Source: an uncultured archaeon (GTDB lineage Archaea > Hadarchaeota > Hadarchaeia > Hadarchaeales > Hadarchaeaceae). Taken from it: a stretch of 64,000 bases of DNA. Below are positions 1 through 20,149 of this stretch, one piece after another. Both the position numbers and the translations under genes were made by a program. The stretch spans positions 2,249-66,248 of the forward strand of contig CAKZTQ010000004.1 of NCBI GenBank assembly GCA_937921735.1. The letters are read 5' to 3'. The notes beneath the pieces were generated by a model, which saw only the letters and a program-made list of their open reading frames with translations, searched no databases and was not told the origin of the DNA. Position 1 is the stretch's first letter; every line of letters starts with the position of its first letter.

Positions 1-282
1 CAATCGCTGGAGCTCGAGGAAGGAGGCGAAGTCTCCGGCCTCGACTTCGGGCCTCGAGGGCAGAGGCAGGATTTCGAGCGCCCAGGTGCTCTCGCCCGAG
101 CGGACGTCCGTCGAGAGGATGAGCACTTCTCGCCTGCCGTTCCAGGCGACGATCGCCCTTTGCCCAGGCTCCCAGACCGAGATGCCGGCCGGCGCCAGCA
201 TGCCCCTGTCGGCGAACGCCCTGCTCGAGCTCATGAGCAGCGCGAGGATCGACAGCGCGAGGTATAGCTTGAGCTCGGTCAC
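1..282 (-). CDS. DUF2330-like secreted protein, N-terminal part (continues beyond the left edge)
   Basis: Manual translation from GTG at 282: MTELKLYLALSILALLMSSSRAFADRGMLAPAGISVWEPGQRAIVAWNGRREVLILSTDV. Signal peptide followed by an ADRG...EPGQRAIVAWNG..E.LILSTD pattern that I recall from DUF2330-type proteins. Frame is open to position 1. Not in the ORF track. Confidence 0.6.
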   Translation of the reverse strand, partial: MTELKLYLALSILALLMSSSRAFADRGMLAPAGISVWEPGQRAIVAWNGRREVLILSTDVRSGESTWALEILPLPSRPEVEAGDFASFLELQRL

Positions 283-345
283 GTGTTCTCCCTAGGATAG
301 CTTGGTTTAAATTTTGTCCCCCACCGCGGCCCCCACTGTCGAGGG

Positions 346-557
346 CGGCACACGTATGTCACCGCTTTTCCAGAGGTACGTGGAAAAACTTTCTCTGGTG
401 CCCTGCCGGTCCCGCTTTGACACACGTGTGTCAGCTGCGCGGTTGGCTAGCCAGATGACATACGTATGTCACCAAAGCCAAAAAACGGGTTCGCTGGAAT
501 CGATGACATACGTGTGTCACGGCAAGCGCTTGGCAAATCGATGACATACATATGTCG
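346..557. repeat. Five copies of a 16-bp palindrome, consensus TGACAYACRTRTGTCA
   Basis: 346 CGGCACACGTATGTCA; 418 TGACACACGTGTGTCA (perfect); 456 TGACATACGTATGTCA (perfect); 504 TGACATACGTGTGTCA; 542 TGACATACATATGTCG. Start-to-start spacing 72, 38, 48, 38. Confidence 0.95.
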
Positions 558-744
558 GCAATTGCCGCGATAACCGTTTCTTGAAGACCATCGTCATGCG
601 TCCTCATGTCGACATAGCGCCATCATCGAAAGGACATTCGACGAGCCTTCCATGCGCGTGAAAAATTGTATCCACAAACACTTTTACATACACATAAAAC
701 TCCTCAACCATCGCACCAATTCAAATAATCTGGAAGAACAAATG

Positions 745-780
745 TCGAGGGATTAATAATCCCTCGAATTTGCGCAAATT
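745..780. repeat. Abutting palindromes TCGAGGGATTA-A-TAATCCCTCGA (745-767) and AATTTGCGCAAATT (767-780)
   Basis: Both are perfect inverted repeats read directly from the sequence, at the edge of the AT-rich tract. Confidence 0.9.
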
Positions 781-1006
781 TTATAACAGCTGAGAAAAAA
801 CGAGCTTAAAAACGATTTTAAACCAGAGAAAATTAACCCTTTACAAAAAAATCTTTTAAAAAACGATAAAATTCATACCAGCCTTAAAAACCCGTCTTAA
901 GGCAATTTGCGGCAAATAAACGGCGATTTTGGCTTGACATAGAGGATACTTTCATAAGCCGCTTATAAGGCGCGCGGACGACCTCTCTATCGAAGGAGGA
1001 ATAAAA

Positions 1007-2104
1007 ATGCCGATAAAAGCCCCCGATATCCCAATCTGGGAGCACGAGGGCTTGGATACGAGGACGCGCTGGGAGTTGATGGTGGCTGACATAAAGCGCG
1101 AGGTGACCTCGGGGGAGCGCGAGGGACAAGCGGTGCCCCCAACCAGAGCATGGGCTGTCACCTCGCTCCTTCGCAAGCTCGCCTCCAAGCAGACGAGGTT
1201 CGCCGACCTGCACGTCCACACCAGGATCTCCGACGGCTGGATCTCGCCCGGCGACGCCGTCGAGCGCGCGGCTAGGGTCGGGCTGGCAGCGATCGCGATC
1301 GCCGATCATGACTCGATAAGCGGCATCCAGACGGCGCTCTGGGCCGGTCGACAGTTCGGCGTGGAGGTGATACCCGCGGTCGAGGTGAGCTCGGGCATAG
1401 ACAACCGCGAGCTCCACATCTTGGGCTACTACATCGACTGGCGCGACAAGAAGTTCGCGGAGAAGCTCCTCGAGATCCAGGAGTTCAGGAAGGAGAGGGT
1501 GAAGCTGATAGTGGACAAGCTGAGGGAGCTCAACATCGACATCCCCTACAACGTCGTCATCGCCCTCGACGGGGGCGTCGTCGGGCGTCCCCACATCGCG
1601 CAGGCGATGGTAGATCTTGGCTACGTGCGCACCACCGACGAGGCCTTCGACAAGTACCTCGGCGTGGGCAAGCCGGCTTACGTGTCGAAGTACCCGCTCA
1701 CGCCGCACAAGGCGATCGCCCTCATCAGGAAGGTGGGCGGAATCCCCGTGCTAGCTCATCCTCTGTTCGCACGAGCCGACGACCTGCTTCCGGAGCTCAT
1801 CGAAGCCGGTCTACGCGGCCTCGAGGTCTACCACACCAAGCACGATGCCTCCGTCACCAAGCACTACGAGGAGCTGGCGAGGAAGTACGACTTGCTGATG
1901 GTGGGAGGCTCCGACTCACACGGCGTGGGAGAGGTGCCCATAGGCCATGTACGGGTGCCCTACTCCTTCGTCGAGAAGCTGAGGGAGGAGCTGGCGGCGA
2001 TGGGGGCAGCTCGCGGGGCGACGACGAATTCGATGCTCGCGGCGAGGGTCAAGGCGCACGAGAGGGGGAGGGCGGCGAATTTTAAGGCTGTAAAGACAAG
2101 ATAA
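1007..2104 (+). CDS. PHP-domain phosphoesterase (TrpH/YciV-like)
   Basis: DLHVHTRISDG, AIADHDS, GRPHIA, VLAHP, GGSDSHG motifs. AAGGAGG RBS upstream. ~60-aa N-terminal extension. Confidence 0.9.
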   Translation: MPIKAPDIPIWEHEGLDTRTRWELMVADIKREVTSGEREGQAVPPTRAWAVTSLLRKLASKQTRFADLHVHTRISDGWISPGDAVERAARVGLAAIAIADHDSISGIQTALWAGRQFGVEVIPAVEVSSGIDNRELHILGYYIDWRDKKFAEKLLEIQEFRKERVKLIVDKLRELNIDIPYNVVIALDGGVVGRPHIAQAMVDLGYVRTTDEAFDKYLGVGKPAYVSKYPLTPHKAIALIRKVGGIPVLAHPLFARADDLLPELIEAGLRGLEVYHTKHDASVTKHYEELARKYDLLMVGGSDSHGVGEVPIGHVRVPYSFVEKLREELAAMGAARGATTNSMLAARVKAHERGRAANFKAVKTR

Positions 2105-2116
2105 AAAGGGGGTCGC

Positions 2117-4519
2117 GTGCTATTCCGGAGGGTGAAGAAGCCCAAGCGCGTCCTGAGGGCCGCGGAGGAAGAGATCTACAGGCCCAAGGGACCTGCTCCT
2201 TCTAGGAGAGCCCACAAGCCCCTCGAGCTCGCGGAGGTGAAGGAGGAGCGGCCCCCTGAGGGGGAGCAGCCCCCGAAGTTAGAGGAGGTCGAGGTCCAAA
2301 CACCAGCCGAGGTGCCGGCGGAAAAGGTCGCTCCAGAGCCAGAGGTTTCGAAGCCGGTGGAGGCGCCGCAACCTGCTCAAGGGCGAGTCGGGGAACCCGA
2401 GGCTGAGGTGGTTGCGGAGGAGCTCGAGGTCGCCGAGCCCGAGGTGTCGAAGGGGACGCTCGCCGAGAGATCCATCGCTGAAGCCCTAGCGACCGACTCA
2501 GCCTTGGAGGAACTCAGGCGGAGGTTGGAGGCCAAGCCGGAGCTCGAGCTCCCGGCAGCGCCCAAGCTCGTCAAAAAACCCTCGGCGAGGAGGGCGGTCG
2601 TGAAGCTCGCCAAGAGGGCGAAGGCGGTGAGGGTCAGGAAGCGCCCATTGCCGAGGAAGAGAAAGCCGTCGGCCGAGAAACCGCGGGCAAAAAGGGGGGC
2701 AAGGGTCGTCAAAAAGCCCTCCCCGGTCGAGGGAAAAGTTAGGCCCGTCAAAAAATCCTCGGCAGCGAGGGTTGCGAGGCCAGCCGCGTTAAAGCCGATC
2801 GAGGGTCCTCGGCTGAAGGTGGCCGCCCGCTCGGCGGCACCCAAACCCGTGTCTAGGCCTCGCGCTAAGCTCGTGAAGCCTAGCAAGAAGTTGGCCAGGG
2901 CAGCTGCCCCATCCGTACCCGAGGCGAGGGCCATCGAGGCCGAGAAGCTCCCGCTGCAGGCCATAGCCTCCGACTTCGCCCTCGAGGAGCTCAAGCGAAA
3001 GCTCGAGGCCAAGCAAGAGGTCGAGGCCCTAAGGGAGTTCGAGGAGTACACCACCTTCGAGCCGCCCAAGGGCTACAAGGAGCTCGAGCGCTATTGGGTG
3101 GTGAAGCCCTACGCGTGGGCGGCCATCCTCTTCAACGAGGAGAAGAACGAACGCCTTTATTACTTAGTCGAGCCCACGCTGACGCCCCTCGAGAAGACGA
3201 TCCTCGAAACGCTCCACGAGCACCTCCTCGACCGCCTGACCTACGAGACGGGCAAGGAAAGGGACGCCGTCATCAGGGAGAAGGCCCTAGAGCTCCTAGA
3301 TGAGTACGGCCTGTCGCTCGACGATAAGTCCGTGAACAAGATCATCTACTACCTTAGGAGGAACTACGTCGGCTACGGCAGGATAGACGGCCTCCTGAGG
3401 GACCCGAGGATAGAGGACATCTCTTGCGATGGCGTCGACGTGCCGATCTTCCTCTACCATCGAGACCACCAGAACATCCGCACCAACATTGTGTTCGAGG
3501 ACGCGCAGGAGCTGGACCTCTTCGTCATCAGGCTGGTGGAGCGCGCGGGGAGGCAGATCTCCCTGGGCAGGCCCACGGTCGACGCCGCGCTGCCCGAGGG
3601 CTACAGGCTCCAGGCGACGATAGGCACGGAGATAACCACGCGCGGCAGCTCCTTCTCGATAAGGAAGTACACCGAGGAGCCCTTCACGCCCGTCGACCTC
3701 ATCCTGTATGGCACCTTCTCGCCCGAGATGCTCGCGTACCTCTGGCTGGCGACGGAGAACAAGAGGAACGTCATGATCGTCGGGGGCACTGCATCGGGGA
3801 AGACGTGCACGCTCAACGCCCTCTCGCTGTTCATCCCGCCCGACGCCAAGATCATCTCCATCGAGGACACCCGGGAGCTGACGCTCTACCAGGACAACTG
3901 GCTCGCCAGCGTCACCCGCGACGCCCACGGCGAGAGGGCGATAGACATGTACGACCTGCTGCGGCAGGCGCTGAGGCAGAGGCCGGAGGTGATCATCGTG
4001 GGCGAGGTTCGAGGCAAGGAGGCGCTAACGCTGTTCCAAGCCATGAGCACGGGCCACTCCTGCTACTCCACCATGCACGCGGGCTCCATCCAGGAGATGG
4101 TGCACAGGCTCGAGGGAGAGCCGATAAACGTCCCCCACCACATGCTGACGGCGCTCGACATCGTCTGCCTACAACTCCTCACCTACCACAGGGACAGGAG
4201 GGTCCGCCGCAACCAGAGCATAGTCGAGGTGCTGGGCGTAGATCCCGTGAGCGGGGCCCTGCGCACGAACCGCATCTACGAGAGGAACCCGATAACCGAC
4301 GAGTTCGAGAGGGTGGGCAACTCGCAGGTCCTGCTGGAGATAGCCCACGAGCGGGGCTGGAGCGCCGTGGAGCTCGAGAGGGAGCTGGACAACCGCAAGA
4401 AGGTGCTGGAGTACTTGGCCAGGAAAAACATGAGGCGCATAAGCGAAGTCTCGACGATAATAAGGCAGTACTACTTCGATCCCGCCAAGGTGATGGAGCT
4501 GGTGGAGCGCGGAGGGTGA
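2117..4519 (+). CDS. Type II/IV secretion (VirB11/FlaI/TadA-type) pilus assembly ATPase with long low-complexity N-terminus
   Basis: Walker A GGTASGKT, Asp box IEDTREL, Walker B IIVGEVRG, His box STMHA, EDISCDG motif. GTG start. Confidence 0.93.
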   Translation: MLFRRVKKPKRVLRAAEEEIYRPKGPAPSRRAHKPLELAEVKEERPPEGEQPPKLEEVEVQTPAEVPAEKVAPEPEVSKPVEAPQPAQGRVGEPEAEVVAEELEVAEPEVSKGTLAERSIAEALATDSALEELRRRLEAKPELELPAAPKLVKKPSARRAVVKLAKRAKAVRVRKRPLPRKRKPSAEKPRAKRGARVVKKPSPVEGKVRPVKKSSAARVARPAALKPIEGPRLKVAARSAAPKPVSRPRAKLVKPSKKLARAAAPSVPEARAIEAEKLPLQAIASDFALEELKRKLEAKQEVEALREFEEYTTFEPPKGYKELERYWVVKPYAWAAILFNEEKNERLYYLVEPTLTPLEKTILETLHEHLLDRLTYETGKERDAVIREKALELLDEYGLSLDDKSVNKIIYYLRRNYVGYGRIDGLLRDPRIEDISCDGVDVPIFLYHRDHQNIRTNIVFEDAQELDLFVIRLVERAGRQISLGRPTVDAALPEGYRLQATIGTEITTRGSSFSIRKYTEEPFTPVDLILYGTFSPEMLAYLWLATENKRNVMIVGGTASGKTCTLNALSLFIPPDAKIISIEDTRELTLYQDNWLASVTRDAHGERAIDMYDLLRQALRQRPEVIIVGEVRGKEALTLFQAMSTGHSCYSTMHAGSIQEMVHRLEGEPINVPHHMLTALDIVCLQLLTYHRDRRVRRNQSIVEVLGVDPVSGALRTNRIYERNPITDEFERVGNSQVLLEIAHERGWSAVELERELDNRKKVLEYLARKNMRRISEVSTIIRQYYFDPAKVMELVERGG

Positions 4520-4539
4520 TAAAGGCGCGAGGGTGAAGC

Positions 4540-6345
4540 TTGACTAGGAGGTTGGCGATCCGTTTATTCGGCAGGTGGGCGCGGGGCAAGAAGTACGAGG
4601 CGTTGCGGGAGAAACTAAGCAGGGCCCGCATGATGATCTCCGCCGACGCCTACGCGGCGCAGGCGATCTTCTACTCCTTCCTGGTCTCCCTCGCGGTCGC
4701 TGCGGCGGGGAGCCTAGCCATCTGGCTCTTGTATTCCCTCGATCTGCCCCTCCTGGGCTTGGTCCTGCTTATGGCCGCCATGCTCGGGTATGTGACCTAT
4801 CGCCTGTTCATGTTCTACCCGTCGCTGGCCGCAAATGAAAGGGCGCACGAGATAGACCTAGCGCTCCCGCATGCGGTCAGCTTCATGCACGCGCTGAGCA
4901 GAAGCGGCGCTACCGTGACCGATATCTTCAGGGAGCTGAGCACCCGCCAGGACGTGGGAAAGATCGCCGAGGAGGCGAAGGTGTTCATGCGGGACGTCGA
5001 GCTATTGGGTCAAGACCCGCTGACGGCGCTCCGCAACCTCTCGCGGTCGACGGCGTCGAGGAGGTTTAAGAACTTCCTAGAGACGCTGACCTCGATCGTC
5101 GAGACCGGGGGCGACATCACCGGCTACTTCGCGAGCAAGTGCGCGGAGTACAACGCCGAGCTCAGGGACGAGCAGAGGAAGTTCATAGAGACGCTCGGGC
5201 TGCTGGCGGAGATCTACATCATCATGCTCATCTTCGCCCCGCTCTTGATCCTTCTCCTCCTCGTGACGATGGGCGCGATGGGAGGGGTCTCAACCGCCCT
5301 CCTCTACCTCGTCGCTTATGTGGCGATCCCCGTTGGCTCCATCATATTCATGGTGTTGATCAAGGTCATTTCGGGCGGCAGGCTCAAGGTGAAGTTGGGC
5401 AAGGTCGGGCCCTCGGAAACCTTTAGGGGTGTGGAGGTGCGGGGGGAGGCGATCAAGAAGGAGATGTTGGAGAGCATCGCTAGAGGGGTGACGATGGCTA
5501 GGCTGAAAGCGGCGATCCTCCACCCCTTCAAGACGGTCTCGGAGAACCCCCACTACGTCTTCTTCGCCAGCGTCCCTGCATCTGCCCTCTTCCTGCTTCT
5601 TTACCGCCCGCTCAGCACCTCCTCCGCCTTCTTCGCGATCCTCATCGCCCTCGTTCCCTACGTCGTCGCCTTTGAGTCCAAGTCAAGGAGGGTGGAGAGG
5701 ATGGAGGGCGCGCTGCTCGATTTCCTTAGGTCGCTCGCGAGTGGCGTCAAGTCAGGTTTGACGCTGCCTCGTGCCATGGCGGTGGCATCGACCACTGATT
5801 TGGGCCCGCTCGGCAAGGAGGTCAGGAGGATGGGCACCGACGTCAGGTGGGGGGTGTCAGCGGCCGAAGCTCTGGCTAGGTTCGAAGCCCGCGTAAGGGA
5901 GTCTGGCATGCTCTCGAGGGTGGCGACGCTGATAAGGAAGGCGAACGAGGCGGAGTCGGATATCTCCGACGTGCTCGACGTCCTCATCGACGACGTTGCG
6001 ACGACCCGCTCCCTGCAGCGCGAGCGTAGGGCAGCGATGGCGACGTACAAGGTCATCATCTTCCTCGTTTTCTTCGTGTTCCTCTTCACCGTCTACATGG
6101 TCGTCAAGAACATCATCCTCATGACCGCTCCGGCCGGAGAGATGGAGATCTTCTTGTTCAGCGGCATCAACCCACGCCTTTGCACGATCGTCTTCATGCA
6201 CGCGGCGATGCTGGAGGGCTTCTTCGCCGGGCTGGTGGGCACGCTGATGGGCGAAGGCGACCTCAGGTCTGGCCTTAAGTACTCGCTGCTGATGATGATC
6301 GCGGCTTATGCAGTGTTCGCCGTGCTCATTTTCCCAATCATCTAG
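4540..6345 (+). CDS. TadC/FlaJ-type pilus membrane platform protein (two T2SSF domains)
   Basis: Follows the ATPase. Multi-TM protein with two repeats (LPHAVSFMHALSRSG; LLDFLRSLASGVKSGLTL). C-terminal FAGLVGTLMGEGDLRSGLKY. Confidence 0.9.
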   Translation: MTRRLAIRLFGRWARGKKYEALREKLSRARMMISADAYAAQAIFYSFLVSLAVAAAGSLAIWLLYSLDLPLLGLVLLMAAMLGYVTYRLFMFYPSLAANERAHEIDLALPHAVSFMHALSRSGATVTDIFRELSTRQDVGKIAEEAKVFMRDVELLGQDPLTALRNLSRSTASRRFKNFLETLTSIVETGGDITGYFASKCAEYNAELRDEQRKFIETLGLLAEIYIIMLIFAPLLILLLLVTMGAMGGVSTALLYLVAYVAIPVGSIIFMVLIKVISGGRLKVKLGKVGPSETFRGVEVRGEAIKKEMLESIARGVTMARLKAAILHPFKTVSENPHYVFFASVPASALFLLLYRPLSTSSAFFAILIALVPYVVAFESKSRRVERMEGALLDFLRSLASGVKSGLTLPRAMAVASTTDLGPLGKEVRRMGTDVRWGVSAAEALARFEARVRESGMLSRVATLIRKANEAESDISDVLDVLIDDVATTRSLQRERRAAMATYKVIIFLVFFVFLFTVYMVVKNIILMTAPAGEMEIFLFSGINPRLCTIVFMHAAMLEGFFAGLVGTLMGEGDLRSGLKYSLLMMIAAYAVFAVLIFPII

Positions 6346-6460
6346 ACGTTCGGCGCCTGCCGTAAAATCATTCGTCGATCAGGCGAGTTGGGCAGGGATG
6401 ACGTTATCTTTCACAAACTTTAAGAATACATAAAAGGCACTCTTTACTCGGTGAGAAGAG

Positions 6461-6883
6461 GTGATAAACGATAAGAGAGGGGTATCGCCAGTAGTTGGTA
6501 CCATTCTATTGATCGCAGTGACGGTAGCGCTTGCAGCGGTCATCGCGACCATCGTCGGCAGGATAGGCGTCCCGGCGAAGGCACCGTATGCGATCCTGGG
6601 CGTGACTGCAGAGGACAAGGACAGTGAAAATGTTAAAATCACCATCATTCACAGGGGTGGAGATGTCCTTAGCGTAGGCGAACTCAAAGTGAAGGCTGAA
6701 AATAGCAATAAGGATTTGGTAGATGTTACCATGAACTGGGCCGGCACCCTATTTTCTGCAGGTGAGGAAGCGTCTGGCACTTATACCTATGGATCTAACC
6801 CGGAGGGAAAAATAATCAAAGTAAAAGTTATCCACACACCCTCTGGCCAACTGCTGCTCGATACCACCGTCAGAATAGAATAA
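6461..6883 (+). CDS. Archaeal type IV pilin (probable major pilin, DUF1628-like N-terminus)
   Basis: Class III signal peptide DKRG/VSPVVGTILLIAVTVALAAVI, then I.IIHRGGD motif. Has its own TATA-like element upstream. Confidence 0.92.
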   Translation: MINDKRGVSPVVGTILLIAVTVALAAVIATIVGRIGVPAKAPYAILGVTAEDKDSENVKITIIHRGGDVLSVGELKVKAENSNKDLVDVTMNWAGTLFSAGEEASGTYTYGSNPEGKIIKVKVIHTPSGQLLLDTTVRIE

Positions 6884-6952
6884 AAAGGAGGTGCTGAGCT
6901 CGCGGAGGAGGTGCCGAGAGGCGTCGGGGCTGGCTGATGTCGGGAGTGTAGC

Positions 6953-6982
6953 GACCGCCAAAACGGCGGTCCACAATTTTTT
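6953..6982 (+). terminator. Hairpin plus T-tract downstream of the major pilin
   Basis: GACCGCC-AAAAC-GGCGGTC (6953-6971) followed by CACAATTTTTT. Confidence 0.55.
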
Positions 6983-7079
6983 GTTTGAGGTGTTTTAGTT
7001 TGTCTCGAAGTTCATTTCCTCGAACGAATTTTTGTTGGACGTCGCCCAAAACCGAACATGAGTTTTTGGGGACACTGGG

Positions 7080-7853
7080 GTGAAAAATTTCATGAGGGAC
7101 GATAACGGAGTTTCGGTGGTTACGGGGGCAATATTGGTCGTTGCGGTGGGCTTCATCATCTTTTCGATCTTTATCGGGTTCTGGGTACCCAGGCAAGGAT
7201 ACGAGCGGGAACGCGAGCACATGGAGGAAGTCAGGAGGGGCTTCTCAAAGCTGAAGTCAGCGATCGAGACGATCGAGCTTCTCGGCTCCAGGAGCATAGA
7301 CCTGAAGATGGCCGCCGACCCCCCACCGATCTTTGGCTGGCCGGCGATGGGCGGCACCTTGTGGTTCGATAACTCGAGTGGGACGCTTAGCTTTCAAGCG
7401 AACAACGTTCACTACGCCGACCAAACTTGGGTCTACGAAAATGGGGCGGTGATATTGGTGCAACAAGGCAAGAGCGTAATGGCCTCCATGCCGGCGATGG
7501 TGGCGGCCATAGATGATAACGGTGAGAACATAAGGATCGAGGTCCGCACCGTGCGGTTGAAGGGTAAGGGTTTTTCGATAGGGGGGACTGGTGCTCGCAA
7601 CATCGTTTTGGTTAAGGAAAATGTCATAATTGAAAACCATCACATCTCAAGCCTGACTATAGCGATAAACTCGGCTTATCCCGATGCTTGGCGGGAGTAC
7701 CTCAGCCACCTCGAGTCGACGCTCAACGCCAAGGGCTACGACGCCGAGGTCAGCGATCTCTCCATTATTATTCGTGGAAAGGTCTACGACAGCGATGTGA
7801 ATGACATTTACTACCTCAGGAAAATCATAGAGGTTGGAGTAAGCGTCGGGTGA
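7080..7853 (+). CDS. Minor pilin / class III signal-peptide protein
   Basis: DDNG/VSVVTGAILVVAV signal. Shares REREH.EEV, KMAADP, DQ.W.YE.GAVIL.QG and W.EYLS motifs with the next gene. Confidence 0.85.
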   Translation: MKNFMRDDNGVSVVTGAILVVAVGFIIFSIFIGFWVPRQGYEREREHMEEVRRGFSKLKSAIETIELLGSRSIDLKMAADPPPIFGWPAMGGTLWFDNSSGTLSFQANNVHYADQTWVYENGAVILVQQGKSVMASMPAMVAAIDDNGENIRIEVRTVRLKGKGFSIGGTGARNIVLVKENVIIENHHISSLTIAINSAYPDAWREYLSHLESTLNAKGYDAEVSDLSIIIRGKVYDSDVNDIYYLRKIIEVGVSVG

Positions 7854-7857
7854 GGCA

Positions 7858-9708
7858 ATGGGCTTACGGGGAAGCTCACGCGGGATTATAAAGGAGAAAA
7901 GAGGCGTCTCCGTAGTATTTGGCGCGATCATCGTCCTAGCGATCCTCCTTGTGGCTTCTTTTGCTTACATTGCGGCCTGGGTGCCGAGCGAAGGACATCA
8001 CCTAGAGCGCGAGCATGTGGAGGAGGTGGGGGACGCCTTTCTCGAGCTGAAATCCGCCGTCGACACCCTTGAGTTGCTCGCTTCGAGGAGTGTGGACGTA
8101 AAGATGGCCGCTGATCCCCTACCCATTTTCCAAGGTGCGAGGTCTGGGGGGCGCCTGTCGGTCGAGCCGGCCGGCGCCAAGTTCTTCTACGCCGAGAGCT
8201 TGAAGGTCGACAATACTACCTCAACCGGCTACCGGGACAAGCTCGTCTTGACCCTCACGCCCACCAAGCTCACGGACTACCTCATCATAGCCTCAGCCGA
8301 GGTCAGCAGGAGCGGTACGGCGAGGGCAAACGTTTGCTTGGAGATCAACGGCGTCGTCTATCAAGAGCTCGAGAACGCCGTGAAAAATCCCGGCGATTGG
8401 TACCCCTTCAACGGCTTAAAGAAAGTTAGGCTCTCAGGCCCCGCCACGATAAAAATCCGCTACAGGTCGACGGTCGCTGGTCAAGCGGCGCTCATAAGGA
8501 ACGCCCGCCTCGCGGTCTGGGCGATCGCCTGCGAATACGCTGAAAACGAGGCGGAGGCCTCGACCGTCGGCACAGAGGACAGGGTCACCTTGAGGTTCAC
8601 TCCGCTGCGGAGCGATAACTACCTTCTCATCGCCTCCGCGACGATAGTCAACAGTGGCTTGGTGAAGCTGCGGGTGAACGAGAACCTGTTTGCGGATGCC
8701 CAAAGGACGAGCACCACCAGTTCTACCTACACTTTCGGTGTAATCAAGAGGGTCTCCTTGGCGGGAGGCCAAGAGGCAAGGGTGGTGCTCCAGTACGAAA
8801 AGGGAAAGATCAAGCACGCCCACGTCGCGGCGATACCATTGAGCCAACTGTCGAACCATTATTACGCCGAGGTCGAAGGCGAGCTCTCGCAGGTGGTCAA
8901 CGCCTACTCGAGCCAAGCGGAGGAGCACTTGCTCCTCGGCACCGTGCACCTCAGGCTGCACCCAGTGCAACAGGTGGGCTGTAGGTTCTTGACCGATGGC
9001 GAGAACTCCCAGGACCCAGGTTTCGTGGGAGAGACCTCGTCCGACTGGGAGAGCTTCTTTGTGATGGATGAGAAGGCGCTGGGTGAGGGCGCTCACGTGG
9101 ATAAGCTGCAGTGCTGGGGCAAGGCGTCGTGGTCCGCGAAGTTCGGCAGGCTGATATCGCTGGAGGTCCCCTCCCTCCACCGCCTGCGCCACGGCCTCAT
9201 CCGTTTCGACGCGAACAACGCCTACTACGTCGACCAGAGCTGGATTTACGAGTTGGGCGCCGTCATCTTGGCGCAGGGCAATGCCAGCTTCATGGTCTCG
9301 AGGTTCGAGGACGTGGGCTTGGTCGTCGTCGATGACAAGGACATCTACGGCAATCCTTTGCCCGGCGACAACATCCGCGTAGAGGTCAACTTCATCAGGA
9401 TCAAGCGATTCGACGCTTCCATCAGCTCGACGGGCACCTCGACGATTTTGCTCGCGAGGGAGAACTCGCGCTACGAGGTAGAGAACGGCCCCCGCGAGAA
9501 CGTCGTCGTGAGGGTTAACTCGACGTACAGGAACGCTTGGGCTGAATACCTCTCCTGGCTCGCGCGCGAACTGAACGCCAAGGGCTACCTCGCGGGCTTC
9601 GATAACCGCGCGCTGAGACTCACCATTTTAGGTAAGAAGACATCACCAGGCGAGAACGACATCTACTACTACGAAAGGGTAACGGAGATAGAAGTGAGCT
9701 TGACATGA
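7858..9708 (+). CDS. Large minor pilin/adhesin, paralog of the upstream gene with a ~340-aa insertion
   Basis: EKRG/VSVVFGAIIVLAIL signal. N- and C-terminal parts align by eye with 7080..7853. The insert has three YAE-initiated repeats. Confidence 0.85.
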   Translation: MGLRGSSRGIIKEKRGVSVVFGAIIVLAILLVASFAYIAAWVPSEGHHLEREHVEEVGDAFLELKSAVDTLELLASRSVDVKMAADPLPIFQGARSGGRLSVEPAGAKFFYAESLKVDNTTSTGYRDKLVLTLTPTKLTDYLIIASAEVSRSGTARANVCLEINGVVYQELENAVKNPGDWYPFNGLKKVRLSGPATIKIRYRSTVAGQAALIRNARLAVWAIACEYAENEAEASTVGTEDRVTLRFTPLRSDNYLLIASATIVNSGLVKLRVNENLFADAQRTSTTSSTYTFGVIKRVSLAGGQEARVVLQYEKGKIKHAHVAAIPLSQLSNHYYAEVEGELSQVVNAYSSQAEEHLLLGTVHLRLHPVQQVGCRFLTDGENSQDPGFVGETSSDWESFFVMDEKALGEGAHVDKLQCWGKASWSAKFGRLISLEVPSLHRLRHGLIRFDANNAYYVDQSWIYELGAVILAQGNASFMVSRFEDVGLVVVDDKDIYGNPLPGDNIRVEVNFIRIKRFDASISSTGTSTILLARENSRYEVENGPRENVVVRVNSTYRNAWAEYLSWLARELNAKGYLAGFDNRALRLTILGKKTSPGENDIYYYERVTEIEVSLT

Positions 9709-13206: not shown

Positions 13207-13932
13207 TCAGAGGGTGAGTTTGGCCGCGAGGCCGCGGAGCGCCCTCGAGGCGGGACTCTTCGGCTTGTGTACGACCACGGGCTTCCTCAACCTCACCGCC
13301 TCCCCCACCGCCGGGTCCTCGTCTATCGCGCCAAGCACTTGGACTTTGAGCTTCTCCTCGACGTTCACGTTCCTCGCGGACTTTCCTCCAAACAACCTGT
13401 TCAGCAGCGAGGTCCTCTTCACCCTGTTTACGATGGCCCCGCCCACTTTCGCCTCCATAACTTCGGCGACCGTCCTCAGTTTCGCCGCCGCTTCAACCGC
13501 TGTGGGGTCGGGCGTCACCAACAGCAGGATCTCGTCCGCCGCCCGCAACGGGGCGAGGCTATACTTGTTCAAGCCCGGGGGGGCATCTATGAGGATGTAA
13601 TCGTAGCCCTTAACTAGCCCCTCCACTACGTCCTCGAGCTTGTTGGGGTCCGCGCTCAGGAAGCCACCTATTGAAGGGCCCGAGGGCATGACGTCTATGC
13701 CATGCGCGGAGTAGATGGCCTTCTCGGCGTTCACCTTCCCCCCGAGCACCTCGTGTAGCGTGACGTAGGTCTCGGCCAGCCCCATGACCGTGGCTATGCC
13801 ACCCATAGCGAGGTCGGCGTCGATGACAAGGGTTTTCTTGCCCATTTGCCCTAGGCAAACCCCCAAATTCGCGGTGGCGGTGGTCTTCCCGACACCACCC
13901 TTCCCTGAAGTTATGGTGTAAACTTTGGACAT
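13207..13932 (-). CDS. minD: MinD/ParA family ATPase
   Basis: Deviant Walker A SGKGGVGKTT, VIDADL, YILIDAPPG, VTPD, IVNRV motifs. Confidence 0.9.
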   Translation of the reverse strand: MSKVYTITSGKGGVGKTTATANLGVCLGQMGKKTLVIDADLAMGGIATVMGLAETYVTLHEVLGGKVNAEKAIYSAHGIDVMPSGPSIGGFLSADPNKLEDVVEGLVKGYDYILIDAPPGLNKYSLAPLRAADEILLLVTPDPTAVEAAAKLRTVAEVMEAKVGGAIVNRVKRTSLLNRLFGGKSARNVNVEEKLKVQVLGAIDEDPAVGEAVRLRKPVVVHKPKSPASRALRGLAAKLTL

Positions 13933-18906: not shown

Positions 18907-19884
18907 CTATCGCCTTGGCTTGGACTGGGCCAACCGTTCCCTGACGGCTGCCACCATCAGGGGAAATATTATGCTCGCGTCGCCTATTACCTGCACCGCC
19001 CTCGCTCGGCCGCTCACCTTGCCCCAGGACTTCGCCTCCTCCAAGGTGGCGCCGCTGAGCCCGCCTGGCTCTGGCCTGTCCATGGTTATCTGCACCGCGT
19101 AGTCGTAGCCCCCACGCTTGACCACGATCATCGCCTGTAGGATGAAGTTTTTCGGCACCCCTCCGCCCAGCATGATGGCACCGTTGCGCTTGGCCTTGCG
19201 CACTATCTCCATGAAGTCGTCGAGATCGGCGAAGGCTTCGACGAAGAAGGTTGGGCCGTGTTTGAGTTTAAACCTCCACACGTCTAGACCTATCGCCGAG
19301 TCTGAGATGGCAGGACAGAACACCGGCACTCCTTCGTCCGCCGCTGCGCGGAGGATCGAGTTTGGGTCGTCGATGCGCTTGCCAACCTCGTAGAGGAACT
19401 CGCGGATGGACATCTGTCTAGACGGGAGATCGTCGAGCAATTCTATGAAGCGCTCGTCGTACATGCTGAAGTTCTTCTCGTAAAGGAAGACGTCGTAGAT
19501 CCTATCTATCTGCAGCCTATATAGCTCGGCGTCGTCCACGATTGCGCTGCCCCTGTAGTGGGAGGCGCCGAACGCCTCGATCATGTCGTGAACCATGTTC
19601 GCGCCCGTCGTGACGAGCACATCGATGAGGTGGTCGCGAATTAAATCCGTGATCACCCGTCGCATCCCCCCCGGCACCAAAGCGCCGGCTAAGCCCAAGT
19701 AGGTCGTCGTGTCCTCTCGCGAGACCATCTCGTAGAAAATGTCTACGGCTTCCGCCACCCTGCCGGCACCGAACACACCGCACTTTCCGAACTCCCGAAT
19801 GAGCTCATCGACGGTCATGTCGCTATGGACCTTGATGTGCTCGATCCGCTTTTGGTACTCCTTCATCGCCCCTTTCATCGTCAC
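18907..19884 (-). CDS. dys: Deoxyhypusine synthase
   Basis: VLVTTGANMVHD, PAISDSAIG, GGGVPKN, GGLSGATLEEAKSWGK motifs. Confidence 0.95.
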   Translation of the reverse strand: MTMKGAMKEYQKRIEHIKVHSDMTVDELIREFGKCGVFGAGRVAEAVDIFYEMVSREDTTTYLGLAGALVPGGMRRVITDLIRDHLIDVLVTTGANMVHDMIEAFGASHYRGSAIVDDAELYRLQIDRIYDVFLYEKNFSMYDERFIELLDDLPSRQMSIREFLYEVGKRIDDPNSILRAAADEGVPVFCPAISDSAIGLDVWRFKLKHGPTFFVEAFADLDDFMEIVRKAKRNGAIMLGGGVPKNFILQAMIVVKRGGYDYAVQITMDRPEPGGLSGATLEEAKSWGKVSGRARAVQVIGDASIIFPLMVAAVRERLAQSKPRR

Positions 19885-20023
19885 ACCCAGCCATCTTCAA
19901 GCTCGCATGTAATAAAATTTTTGATAGTCGCTCGCGTGCTGAATATGGCAACATATGGCATTAGTTAGGCCATGATATAAGAGAAGAAAATTTTAAGACG
20001 GGAGGTTAAGATGTAAAAATGGT

Positions 20024-20149
20024 GCGGAGGTAACTCAGCCTGGGAGAGTGTCGGTCGGCTAGGTAATACCTAGTCGGGCAAAACTGAAGTTCCCAGGGAT
20101 GGATACGGATATCCGAATGTCGTGGGTTCAAATCCCACCCTCCGCACCA
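20024..20149 (+). tRNA. tRNA-Phe(GAA) with two introns (20055-20082 at position 30/31; 20090-20110 at 37/38)
   Basis: Removing both introns gives GCGGAGG TA ACTC AGCCTGGGA GAGT G TCGGA CTGAAGA TCCGA ATGTC GTGGG TTCAAAT CCCAC CCTCCGC ACCA (77 nt). TATA-like TTTTAAG ~30 nt upstream. Confidence 0.9.

Follow-up and report, generated by a model that had tools for sequence, protein, structure and literature searches.

Palindromes between DUF2330 and pilus genes of a Hadarchaeota genome as a probable gene-less satellite array of a Cas2-like gene cassette

What is a cluster of five 16-bp palindromes doing in the largest intergenic region of an archaeal genome segment, and which protein might read it? 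The question is raised by a 64,000-nucleotide stretch of DNA from an uncultured member of the Hadarchaeota, here called the window, which corresponds to G000:C4:2249-66248 of a 1.06-Mb metagenome-assembled genome (MAG; 60 contigs, 83% complete, 57% G+C; hereafter G000). The palindromes lie in a gap of 724 bp (283-1006) that is the biggest in the window, as an earlier note on this DNA had stated, and that note had interpreted them either as a centromere-like or origin-associated element or as a cooperative operator of the adjacent DUF2330 and pilus promoters. We conclude that the array is most probably neither a centromere nor an origin, and that it is unlikely to be an operator dedicated to the DUF2330/pilus promoters. 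It can be identified with high confidence as a satellite cluster of the repeat that is cognate to a Cas2-like gene, and the overall reading, in which the window palindromes are a gene-less satellite array of the repeat of a Hadarchaeota cassette that spreads by the mechanism proposed below, is given a probability of roughly 60%.

A search for the type-A palindrome TGACAYACRTRTGTCA on both strands, allowing up to two mismatches, located five sites at window positions 346, 418, 456, 504 and 542, with start-to-start distances of 72/38/48/38, and no further match in the 64 kb. When 100 dinucleotide-preserving shuffles of the window were used as a control, an average of 0.08 and a maximum of 2 matches were obtained, and none of the 100 reached the observed 10 strand-hits. 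Copy 1 (CGGCACACGTATGTCA, 346-361) has two mismatches and a decayed left end, copy 2 (TGACACACGTGTGTCA, 418-433) and copy 3 (TGACATACGTATGTCA, 456-471) are perfect palindromes, copy 4 (TGACATACGTGTGTCA, 504-519) has mixed half-sites, and copy 5 (TGACATACATATGTCG, 542-557) has one mismatch; ATCGA stands directly before both copy 4 and copy 5. The entire gene-less type-A array extends from 346 to 557 and is composed of units of 38-72 bp, each consisting of a palindrome and a diverged spacer, and no Cas2-like reading frame was found within it. A 14-bp direct repeat, AATCGATGACATAC, is present at 498 and 536, and short perfect palindromes are located within or just past the spacers (TGGCTAGCCA, 444-453; CAAGCGCTTG, 523-532; CGGCAATTGCCG, 556-567; ATGTCGACAT, 606-615). 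The positions, sequences and spacing of the five copies, two of them perfect, as well as of the exact direct repeat and the interleaved short palindromes, had been described before and were all confirmed. Of the short palindromes, TGGCTAGCCA, CAAGCGCTTG and CGGCAATTGCCG are perfect over 10-12 bp, have unrelated sequences and occupy three spacers or flanks of the array; none of the four recurs in the other arrays described below, and their number exceeds the chance expectation for such short spacers. Centre-to-centre spacings of 16-72 bp showed no consistent 10.5-bp helical register.

In the whole genome, the same search with at most two mismatches gave 26 sites, 25 of which are intergenic and belong to seven loci on five contigs, and a control search of the genome with the reversed pattern gave 0 matches. 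About 89% of the genome is coding, yet all seven type-A loci are intergenic, and the intragenic site at C11:20664 is a probable chance match. Besides the window array with its 5 sites between divergent genes (C4:2594-2805), there are 5 sites at C16:14411-14583 between the convergent 3' ends of genes for a membrane protein and an MBL-fold protein, 8 sites at C32:2783-3281 between genes for a large surface protein and a small Zn-ribbon protein, and 4 sites at C45:28416-28664 inside a same-strand pair formed by an MptE-like gene followed by a dihydroneopterin aldolase (DHNA) gene; single intergenic sites were found at C15:20971, C15:56351 and C16:48904. For a centromere or origin, the earlier note had expected clustering at one locus, which is at odds with 25 intergenic sites spread over seven. 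In a genome of the same genus (G001), arrays are present at places syntenic to the C16, C45, C32, C16b and C15b loci, and in other genera arrays occupy other, non-orthologous places. Exact type-A doublets among species-representative genomes were found only in the sister MAG (Ca. Hadarchaeales JZ-2_201705_bins_157). Metagenome relatives comprise gene-less arrays (L121, L124, L136 and L144) as well as gene-bearing cassettes (L135, L141 and L158), in different gene contexts, and several relatives' contigs end within arrays, as would be expected for multi-copy repeats.

The candidate for the cognate protein came from the array on C32, inside which a small open reading frame (ORF) with the Cas2-like signature LLVYDIRR...LQHSVWE is located, and Cas2-like ORFs are also found within the arrays of G004 and G016. 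In these two genomes, which represent two other genera, the arrangement is clearer. The G004 gene has its ATG within a palindrome (TGACACACGT-ATG-TCA), and the first three bases of the palindrome that follows form its TGA stop; similarly, the stop of the G016 gene is in the first of six downstream palindromes. Homologues, which according to NCBI originate from Hadarchaeota or 'Hodarchaeaceae' MAGs, have 69 amino acids and a nearly invariant MSY start (ATG TCA TAY). For the 69-residue protein a Cas2 fold was predicted by AlphaFold2 (AF2) with a predicted local distance difference test score (pLDDT) of 89, and the best matches in Foldseek and hidden Markov model (HMM) searches were the Sulfolobus Cas2 proteins SSO1404 (2ivy) and SSO8090 (3exc), with a Foldseek probability of 1.0 and a template modelling (TM) score of about 0.7. 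The score for the Pfam family PF09827 (CRISPR_Cas2) amounted to 20.4 bits, just below the gathering threshold of 23.8, and the score for PaaX_M was far under its cut-off. Asp8, at the catalytic position, is conserved in at least 90% of the sequences, and no HUH motif was found in either alignment of the Cas2-like proteins (A1, A2). The family is small: a search of 1.84 billion proteins gave 81 representatives at E <= 1e-3, and none of the papers searched describes a module formed by a Cas2-like gene and palindromes. The ATG lies in a palindrome about 34 nt downstream of a conserved TATA box, so that a possible operator covers the start of the gene itself, as would be expected for an autoregulated factor.

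Among 66 Hadarchaeota genomes, all strong matches to this family are flanked on both sides by a palindrome of 16-18 bp which is lineage-specific, and at least seven palindrome types pair with subtypes of the Cas2-like gene across genomes: TGAYACACGTRTGTCA flanks the gene in G000, G001, G004, G016 and G058, TGACATAGCTRTGTCA in G013 and G011, TGTCACASCTGTGACA in G003 and G012, TGACAAAGGTTTGTCA in G023, TGTCAAACGTTTGACA in G052, ATGTCTCAWWTGAGACAT in G040 and G026, and ATGTCTTATTTACGACAT in G006. The type of palindrome seen in the window brackets the gene of 69 codons in five genera. The pairing also holds within a single genome. In G000, a type-B paralogue of 81 amino acids (C17:22456-22701) has an upstream partner gene of 109 codons and TGTCCTAWWTAGGACA as flanking palindrome, and its cassette (C17:22073-22925) consists of a conserved leader, the partner gene, which is without Pfam match, the Cas2-like gene and four copies of TGTCCTAWWTAGGACA. 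This palindrome occurs at 13 sites and 5 loci in G000, with gene-less clusters at C16:6945-7328, C15:17202-17244, C19:11787-11819 and C11:117144. A divergent type-D paralogue (C18:813-1133, YYVIYDF...WVQFGV; region 805-1133) was found with a profile of the cassette leaders, and its ORF is flanked by the 14-bp palindrome GGCGAACGTTCGCC at C18:854 and 1072; solo sites of GGCGAACGTTCGCC were also considered, but three of the four are in coding regions and were therefore set aside as probable chance matches. Since three palindromes pair with three paralogues in one cell, a shared host factor cannot be the reader. Judged by this pairing of sequences, the Cas2-like protein and the palindrome are cognate.

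Does such a protein read the palindrome as duplex DNA, or as a hairpin in RNA? At positions 6 (Y) and 11 (R) of the 25 intergenic G000 sites, 5 have the combination C/G, 6 have T/A and 14 are mixed, compared to 12.5 mixed sites expected if the positions were independent. Mixed sites occur in both orientations without strand bias, and in the C32 cassette all four of them place a C.A mismatch in the sense strand. As the half-sites vary independently and no compensatory signal is present, a dimer that reads two TGACAY half-sites on duplex DNA is favored. In other subtypes, arms of 6-7 bp are symmetric and the central 2-4 bp are free, which fits duplex and hairpin models alike. On balance, we lean towards binding of the Cas2-fold protein as a dimer to duplex DNA, with a little more than even confidence. 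The proposal of the earlier note that the array is a multi-site target of a dimeric DNA-binding protein is supported by the independent half-sites, by palindromes that are conserved above their spacers and by the absence of comparable matches in the shuffles.

The alternative at the RNA level is that arrays are transcribed and palindromes form 6-bp hairpins that are bound or cut by the Cas2-like protein, as a mini-CRISPR-like system or as stabilizers or terminators of mRNA of the REP (repetitive extragenic palindromic) type. Some Cas2 proteins are RNases, and the nearly invariant Asp8 at the catalytic position is consistent with such an activity. Also, sites often abut stop codons, and in three cases (the Cas2-like gene, C15:56364 and L144) the palindrome itself provides the TGA; the asymmetric form TGATACACGTGTGTCA of G016 and G004 is always oriented for a U.G pair in the sense strand. 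Hairpins can form (fold z = -3.35), as is trivially expected of palindromes. However, positions 6 and 11 lack a compensatory pattern, the C.A combination is found on either strand, and the mixed C32 sites are all C.A in the sense strand. In addition, arrays occur in all orientations relative to neighbouring genes, the spacers (0-56 nt) resemble one another, unlike CRISPR spacers, and there was no Rfam match, with a search of window positions 1-1200 yielding no known RNA family. This alternative is therefore judged unlikely.

How did the arrays reach their present places? At the junction between the MptE-like and DHNA genes, 374 bp with four palindromes separate the two genes in G000 and 369 bp in G001, whereas the junction measures 67 bp without sites in G003, and in G012 the genes overlap. 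Similarly, an array of four sites in L144 separates a radical-SAM gene from a hexapeptide-repeat gene (gamma-CA) that converges on it, and the G000 orthologues of this pair (C39:18534-19601 and 19598-20149) overlap by 4 bp, which represents an empty site. No target duplications were seen at these two empty-site junctions. Two units of G003 with the structure 'palindrome - 18 bp - palindrome - promoter - gene - palindrome' are about 99% identical; the sequences around them are unrelated, and the palindromes mark the limits of their similarity. The 34-bp spacing of this unit recurs in solo doublets elsewhere in G003, and solo sites and doublets are also scattered in G012. From these comparisons of sequences, the arrays are best described as lineage-specific insertions. 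The first three bases of the palindrome (TGA) coincide with the stop codon of the upstream gene at C15:56351-56366, at L144:1205 and at Cas2-like genes in L021 and L023; a TGA that is repeatedly supplied by the palindrome indicates that the inserted DNA adjoins the native stop codon or takes its place.

The earlier note had proposed to compare the conservation of sites and spacers in relatives; in an alignment of G000 with G001, identity amounts to 90% for the palindrome columns and to 77% for the spacer columns, and the sites are thus the better conserved part. Whole units were gained or lost between the two genomes, for example at C16b, where one site in one genome corresponds to two sites 66 bp apart in the other. 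Some spacers of the window array resemble those of the C16, C32 and C45 arrays (TCGATT..CGCGACG type) and the G016 array is a recent duplication of a three-unit block, and both observations point to growth by tandem duplication. The earlier note had named the terminal repeat of a miniature inverted-repeat transposable element (MITE) as an outcome that would speak against its interpretation; the part that stands is that the palindrome is the bracketing repeat of a small, probably movable cassette, whereas the features that define a MITE were not found. Within the C45 array, a 143-bp segment between two palindrome pairs (G000:C45:28474-28616, L017:3529-3673) is about 75-80% conserved between the two species of the genus, and, being without ORF or Rfam assignment, it could be remnant cargo or a small RNA.

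The cognate gene itself is damaged in G000. At a locus syntenic to C32, the Logan contig L087 from the sister species carries an intact gene of 69 codons, relative to which the G000 type-A gene (C32, about 2793-3035) has three lesions: the start palindrome is decayed with a change of ATG to ACG, and two frameshifts result from deletions of 1 nt and, close to the 3' end, of 2 nt. Translation from an in-frame ATG of the upstream palindrome might yield a product of 73 amino acids that lacks the last strand. No other copy of the type-A gene was found in the assembled 83% of G000. With three lesions in the cognate gene, the window array is probably unoccupied or was orphaned recently; it is probably an orphan satellite, and possibly a relic.

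Several points weigh against this interpretation. Despite the decayed gene, the sites of G000 show no more decay than their counterparts in the sister species, for which a second gene copy missing from the 83%-complete assembly, assembly errors or a different binder are possible reasons. An nhmmer profile built from 12 cassette leaders finds the type-A, type-B and type-D cassettes of G000 and not the window locus, so the array is not simply a cassette from which the gene was deleted. At the window locus no empty site was established, and the DUF2330-PHP neighbourhood is not conserved in other genera: orthologues of the PHP and DUF2330 genes reside elsewhere in other neighbourhoods, the G001 assembly is without both genes, and the G003 contig ends on both sides. 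The array may affect the DUF2330 promoter that is adjacent to it at a distance of 35 bp. With regard to the protein, we know of no sequence-specific DNA-reading mode for the Cas2 fold, and in PaaX it is a part other than the Cas2-like domain that binds DNA. A resemblance by eye of window positions 307-345 to the cassette leader, which would have made the window array a cassette minus its gene, was not confirmed by the profile and was discarded; the TATA box in this segment is more likely that of DUF2330. As leaders of this kind are also found in front of unrelated pilin-like genes (C34, L121), the cassette leader may be a common type of strong promoter.

A first rival explanation assumes that the palindromes are centromere-like or chromosome-organizing sites of a parS/ParB, SegAB or SMC-loading system. 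The likeness to parS (TG..CACGTG..CA) had been given as 10/16 for the copy at 418; its ten matching positions are real, although the parS consensus TGTTNCACGTGAAACA specifies 15 positions, so that the proper figure is 10/15. That consensus is not reached, as both half-sites differ from it, at positions 3-4 and 12-14. Clusters of 4-8 sites do resemble plasmid centromeres, and candidate partners are encoded in the genome: a ParA-like ATPase and a TrmB-like winged helix-turn-helix (wHTH) protein directly past DUF2330 (G000:C4:208-1427), a protein with ParB_N and HTH domains (G000:C31:5484-6302) and an SMC gene 3 kb from the C32 array. The MinD/ParA ATPase that the earlier note had placed about 13 kb away was found as a MinD-like gene at 13207-13932 on the minus strand. 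However, the wHTH gene exists only in G000, G003, G059 and G008, and no palindromes are present at the ParA/wHTH loci of other genomes; the ParB-like protein is without orthologue in the motif-bearing genomes G001, G004 and G016. Both the ParA-like/wHTH and the ParB-like proteins were rejected as binders because they do not co-occur with the motif. Furthermore, the motif type follows the Cas2-like paralogue even within one genome, and the arrays are lineage-specific insertions. A centromere role is thus very improbable, and the centromere or origin element envisaged in the earlier note does not agree with a repeat that is found at seven loci instead of one and that brackets and co-varies with a Cas2-like gene, not with a ParB, SegB or Orc gene.

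The two rejected partner loci deserve a description of their own. At C4:208-1427, on the minus strand and immediately ahead of the window, the gene for the 265-residue ParA/MinD-like ATPase overlaps the gene for the TrmB-like wHTH protein, which has 141 residues and an N-terminal coiled coil, and the two are kept as a pair, beside a membrane protein, in G003, G059 and G008 only; the pair may be a sporadic partition-like or accessory module. The protein encoded at C31:5484-6302 has 272 residues, with a ParB_N domain (58.6 bits), an HTH and a C-terminal CxxC zinc ribbon, and its gene is surrounded by genes for pilin-like and surface proteins and by a PIN-like gene. As a search of 45 genomes of the family gave no orthologue, this protein is probably encoded by a mobile element.

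Between the array and the promoter of the PHP gene lies an AT-rich stretch (660-930, 28-43% G+C), and if the palindromes acted as origin-recognition boxes (ORBs), this stretch might be the unwinding element of a replication origin. In favor of this idea, the 270-bp region is directly next to the repeats, and both are in the largest gap between genes of the window. On the other hand, the other three arrays are without AT-rich flank, about 30 comparably AT-rich spots exist in the genome, no Cdc6_C match was obtained in the 83%-complete assembly of 60 contigs, and known ORB elements are not perfect 16-bp palindromes, which leaves the origin a very small chance. The AT-rich stretch (270 bp) is unique in the genome and is outside the repeat family. 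It contains a perfect hairpin with an 11-bp stem at 745-767 (TCGAGGGATTA-T-TAATCCCTCGA), and two direct repeats of the AAAAAACGAT type (795 and 846) are located in it, upstream of the PHP/pilus operon.

A further rival is an ordinary regulon, in which the Cas2-fold protein would be a transcription factor and the array a cooperative operator for the DUF2330 and/or PHP-pilus promoters. The 5' part of the DUF2330 gene occupies window positions 1-282 on the minus strand (full gene G000:C4:1478-2530), and a TATA-like TTTAAA is found at 307-312, about 25 nt upstream of its GTG start. From its sequence and position, TTTAAA is the putative DUF2330 promoter, and the array would start about 35 bp further upstream; copy 1 at this distance from the putative TATA box would be suitably placed for a regulator. 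The single sites C16:48904 and C15:20971 are in promoter-containing regions, the palindrome over the start codon of the cassette's own gene fits autorepression, palindromes are conserved above spacers, and the metagenome contig L121 has six sites upstream of pilin-like genes. Nevertheless, those pilin-like genes are without match in G000, arrays are located at sites where two 3' ends converge (C16, L144) as well as in an operon junction of only 0-67 bp in relatives, their placement is not orthologous across genera, and the cognate gene is decayed in G000. On the other side of the array, the probable promoter of the operon for PHP and type-IV-pilus-like proteins (TAGAGGATACTTTCATAAGCCGCTTATAAG, 940-969, plus strand), assigned by eye, is about 400 bp away; by eye, the same promoter block is also kept upstream of the G003 orthologue. 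A regulon is hence rather unlikely. The cooperative operator for the DUF2330 and pilus promoters that had been suggested earlier does not account for arrays at convergent 3' ends and in the operon junction, and PHP orthologues of other genera are without upstream sites.

The operon downstream of the array (1007-6345, plus strand) encodes a PHP-domain protein (1007-2104), a FlaI/VirB11-type ATPase (2117-4519) and a TadC-like membrane protein (4540-6345), and pilin-like genes follow the TadC-like gene at 6461-9708. The type-IV-pilus-like operon (1007-9708) thus starts with a gene for a PHP-domain phosphoesterase; its ATPase has 800 residues with a long Lys/Pro/Ala-rich N-terminal extension, and its three pilin-like genes encode class-III signal peptides.

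We propose the following mechanism for the satellite array and its cassette. The cassette consists of a stand-alone gene for a 69-residue Cas2-fold protein between 16-bp palindromes (TGAYAY-ACGT-RTRTCA). A dimer of this protein would bind each palindrome on double-stranded DNA, with one half-site (TGACAY) per subunit and the arginine-rich helix 1 as a possible reading element, and binding to the palindrome over the start codon of its own gene would lead to autoregulation. Copies of palindrome-bounded units would arrive at new intergenic sites, where tandem duplication or unequal recombination would multiply them, and the amplified copies would be left behind as orphan arrays, following the same logic as the clusters of REPs or of bacterial interspersed mosaic elements (BIMEs) around the gene for a REP-associated tyrosine transposase (RAYT). 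A further step, that the Cas2-fold protein itself is a site-specific nuclease or strand-transfer factor which cuts its own palindrome, moves the units and seeds REP-like arrays, is conceivable but doubtful.

The known roles of Cas2 are that of a structural subunit in the CRISPR integrase and that of a non-specific nuclease or toxin. If the proposal is correct, recognition of its own short palindrome by a Cas2-fold protein would put the fold to a new use, the reading of sequence, and if the repeats also colonize intergenic DNA, the system would be an archaeal counterpart of REP/RAYT biology. A Cas2-fold protein that cuts would define a new class of minimal mobile element. The pair of a Cas2 and short palindromic repeats would be a living one, independent of Cas1, with a bearing on how CRISPR repeats and Cas2 met. 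The system is small (a 69-residue protein and a 16-bp site) and easily tested in vitro. In practical terms, the arrays break MAG assemblies and mimic operators, centromeres and origins, and recognizing them prevents mis-annotation. New in this analysis are large arrays without a gene, evidence from empty sites and the decay of the cognate gene.

Two groups of sequences that came up in the searches were set apart from the family. Bacterial contigs of a Bacteroides MAG (L117, L118) and of metagenomes (L123, L132, L142) contain an unrelated element with TGACACACGTGTGTCA-like palindromes at a spacing of 23 bp, and the satellites L127, L128, L139, L148 and L161, with a period of 30 or 44 bp, TGACACACRTGTATCA-like cores, up to 49 copies and low G+C, are probably eukaryotic or otherwise unrelated.

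When compared to known systems, the module shares with the CRISPR Cas2 proteins SSO1404 and SSO8090 the fold, the small size, an N-terminal beta-strand that ends in a conserved Asp, and the association with arrays of short, partly palindromic repeats. In contrast to CRISPR arrays, the repeat has 16 bp instead of 23-47 bp, the spacers (0-56 bp, and up to 240 bp with a gene in between) are alike and conserved between species, and the gene is located within the array, where repeats contain its start and stop codons. Neither cas1 nor other cas genes are adjacent to any of the four arrays, the neighbours of which are housekeeping genes; no genome-wide search for Cas1 was made. VapD and the VapXD toxin-antitoxin system also comprise a stand-alone protein of the Cas2 superfamily, with a small upstream partner as in the type-B cassette and a probable autoregulation via palindromic operators, but type A is without partner gene and dispersed multi-site operator arrays are not a feature of toxin-antitoxin systems. 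ParR-parC, omega of pSM19035 and ParG likewise combine a protein of about 70 residues with 4-10 close cognate sites that overlap its own promoter; those proteins, however, are ribbon-helix-helix proteins encoded beside a plasmid partition NTPase, whereas here a Cas2 fold, no linked NTPase and arrays scattered over the chromosome are found. That this class of fold can recognize a DNA sequence is shown by the DNA-binding domains of papillomavirus E2 and EBNA1, which are a functional analogy without homology. Unlike MITEs, the arrays vary in unit number and length and share no termini beyond the palindrome. As these systems are defined, the module is neither CRISPR, nor parS/ParB, nor Seg, nor a classical regulon. 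Shared with the bacterial REP/BIME-RAYT systems are intergenic palindromes present as singlets, doublets and clusters, a small cognate gene that is flanked by and co-varies with the repeats, and copy numbers that are very different between related genomes. The protein, in contrast, has a Cas2 (ferredoxin-like) fold without HUH motif or Y1 transposase domain, we know of no transposition chemistry for this fold, and the repeats are perfect 16-bp palindromes in irregular tandem arrays of an archaeal host. By analogy, the logic of the module is closest to that of REP/BIME-RAYT, carried out with an unrelated protein.

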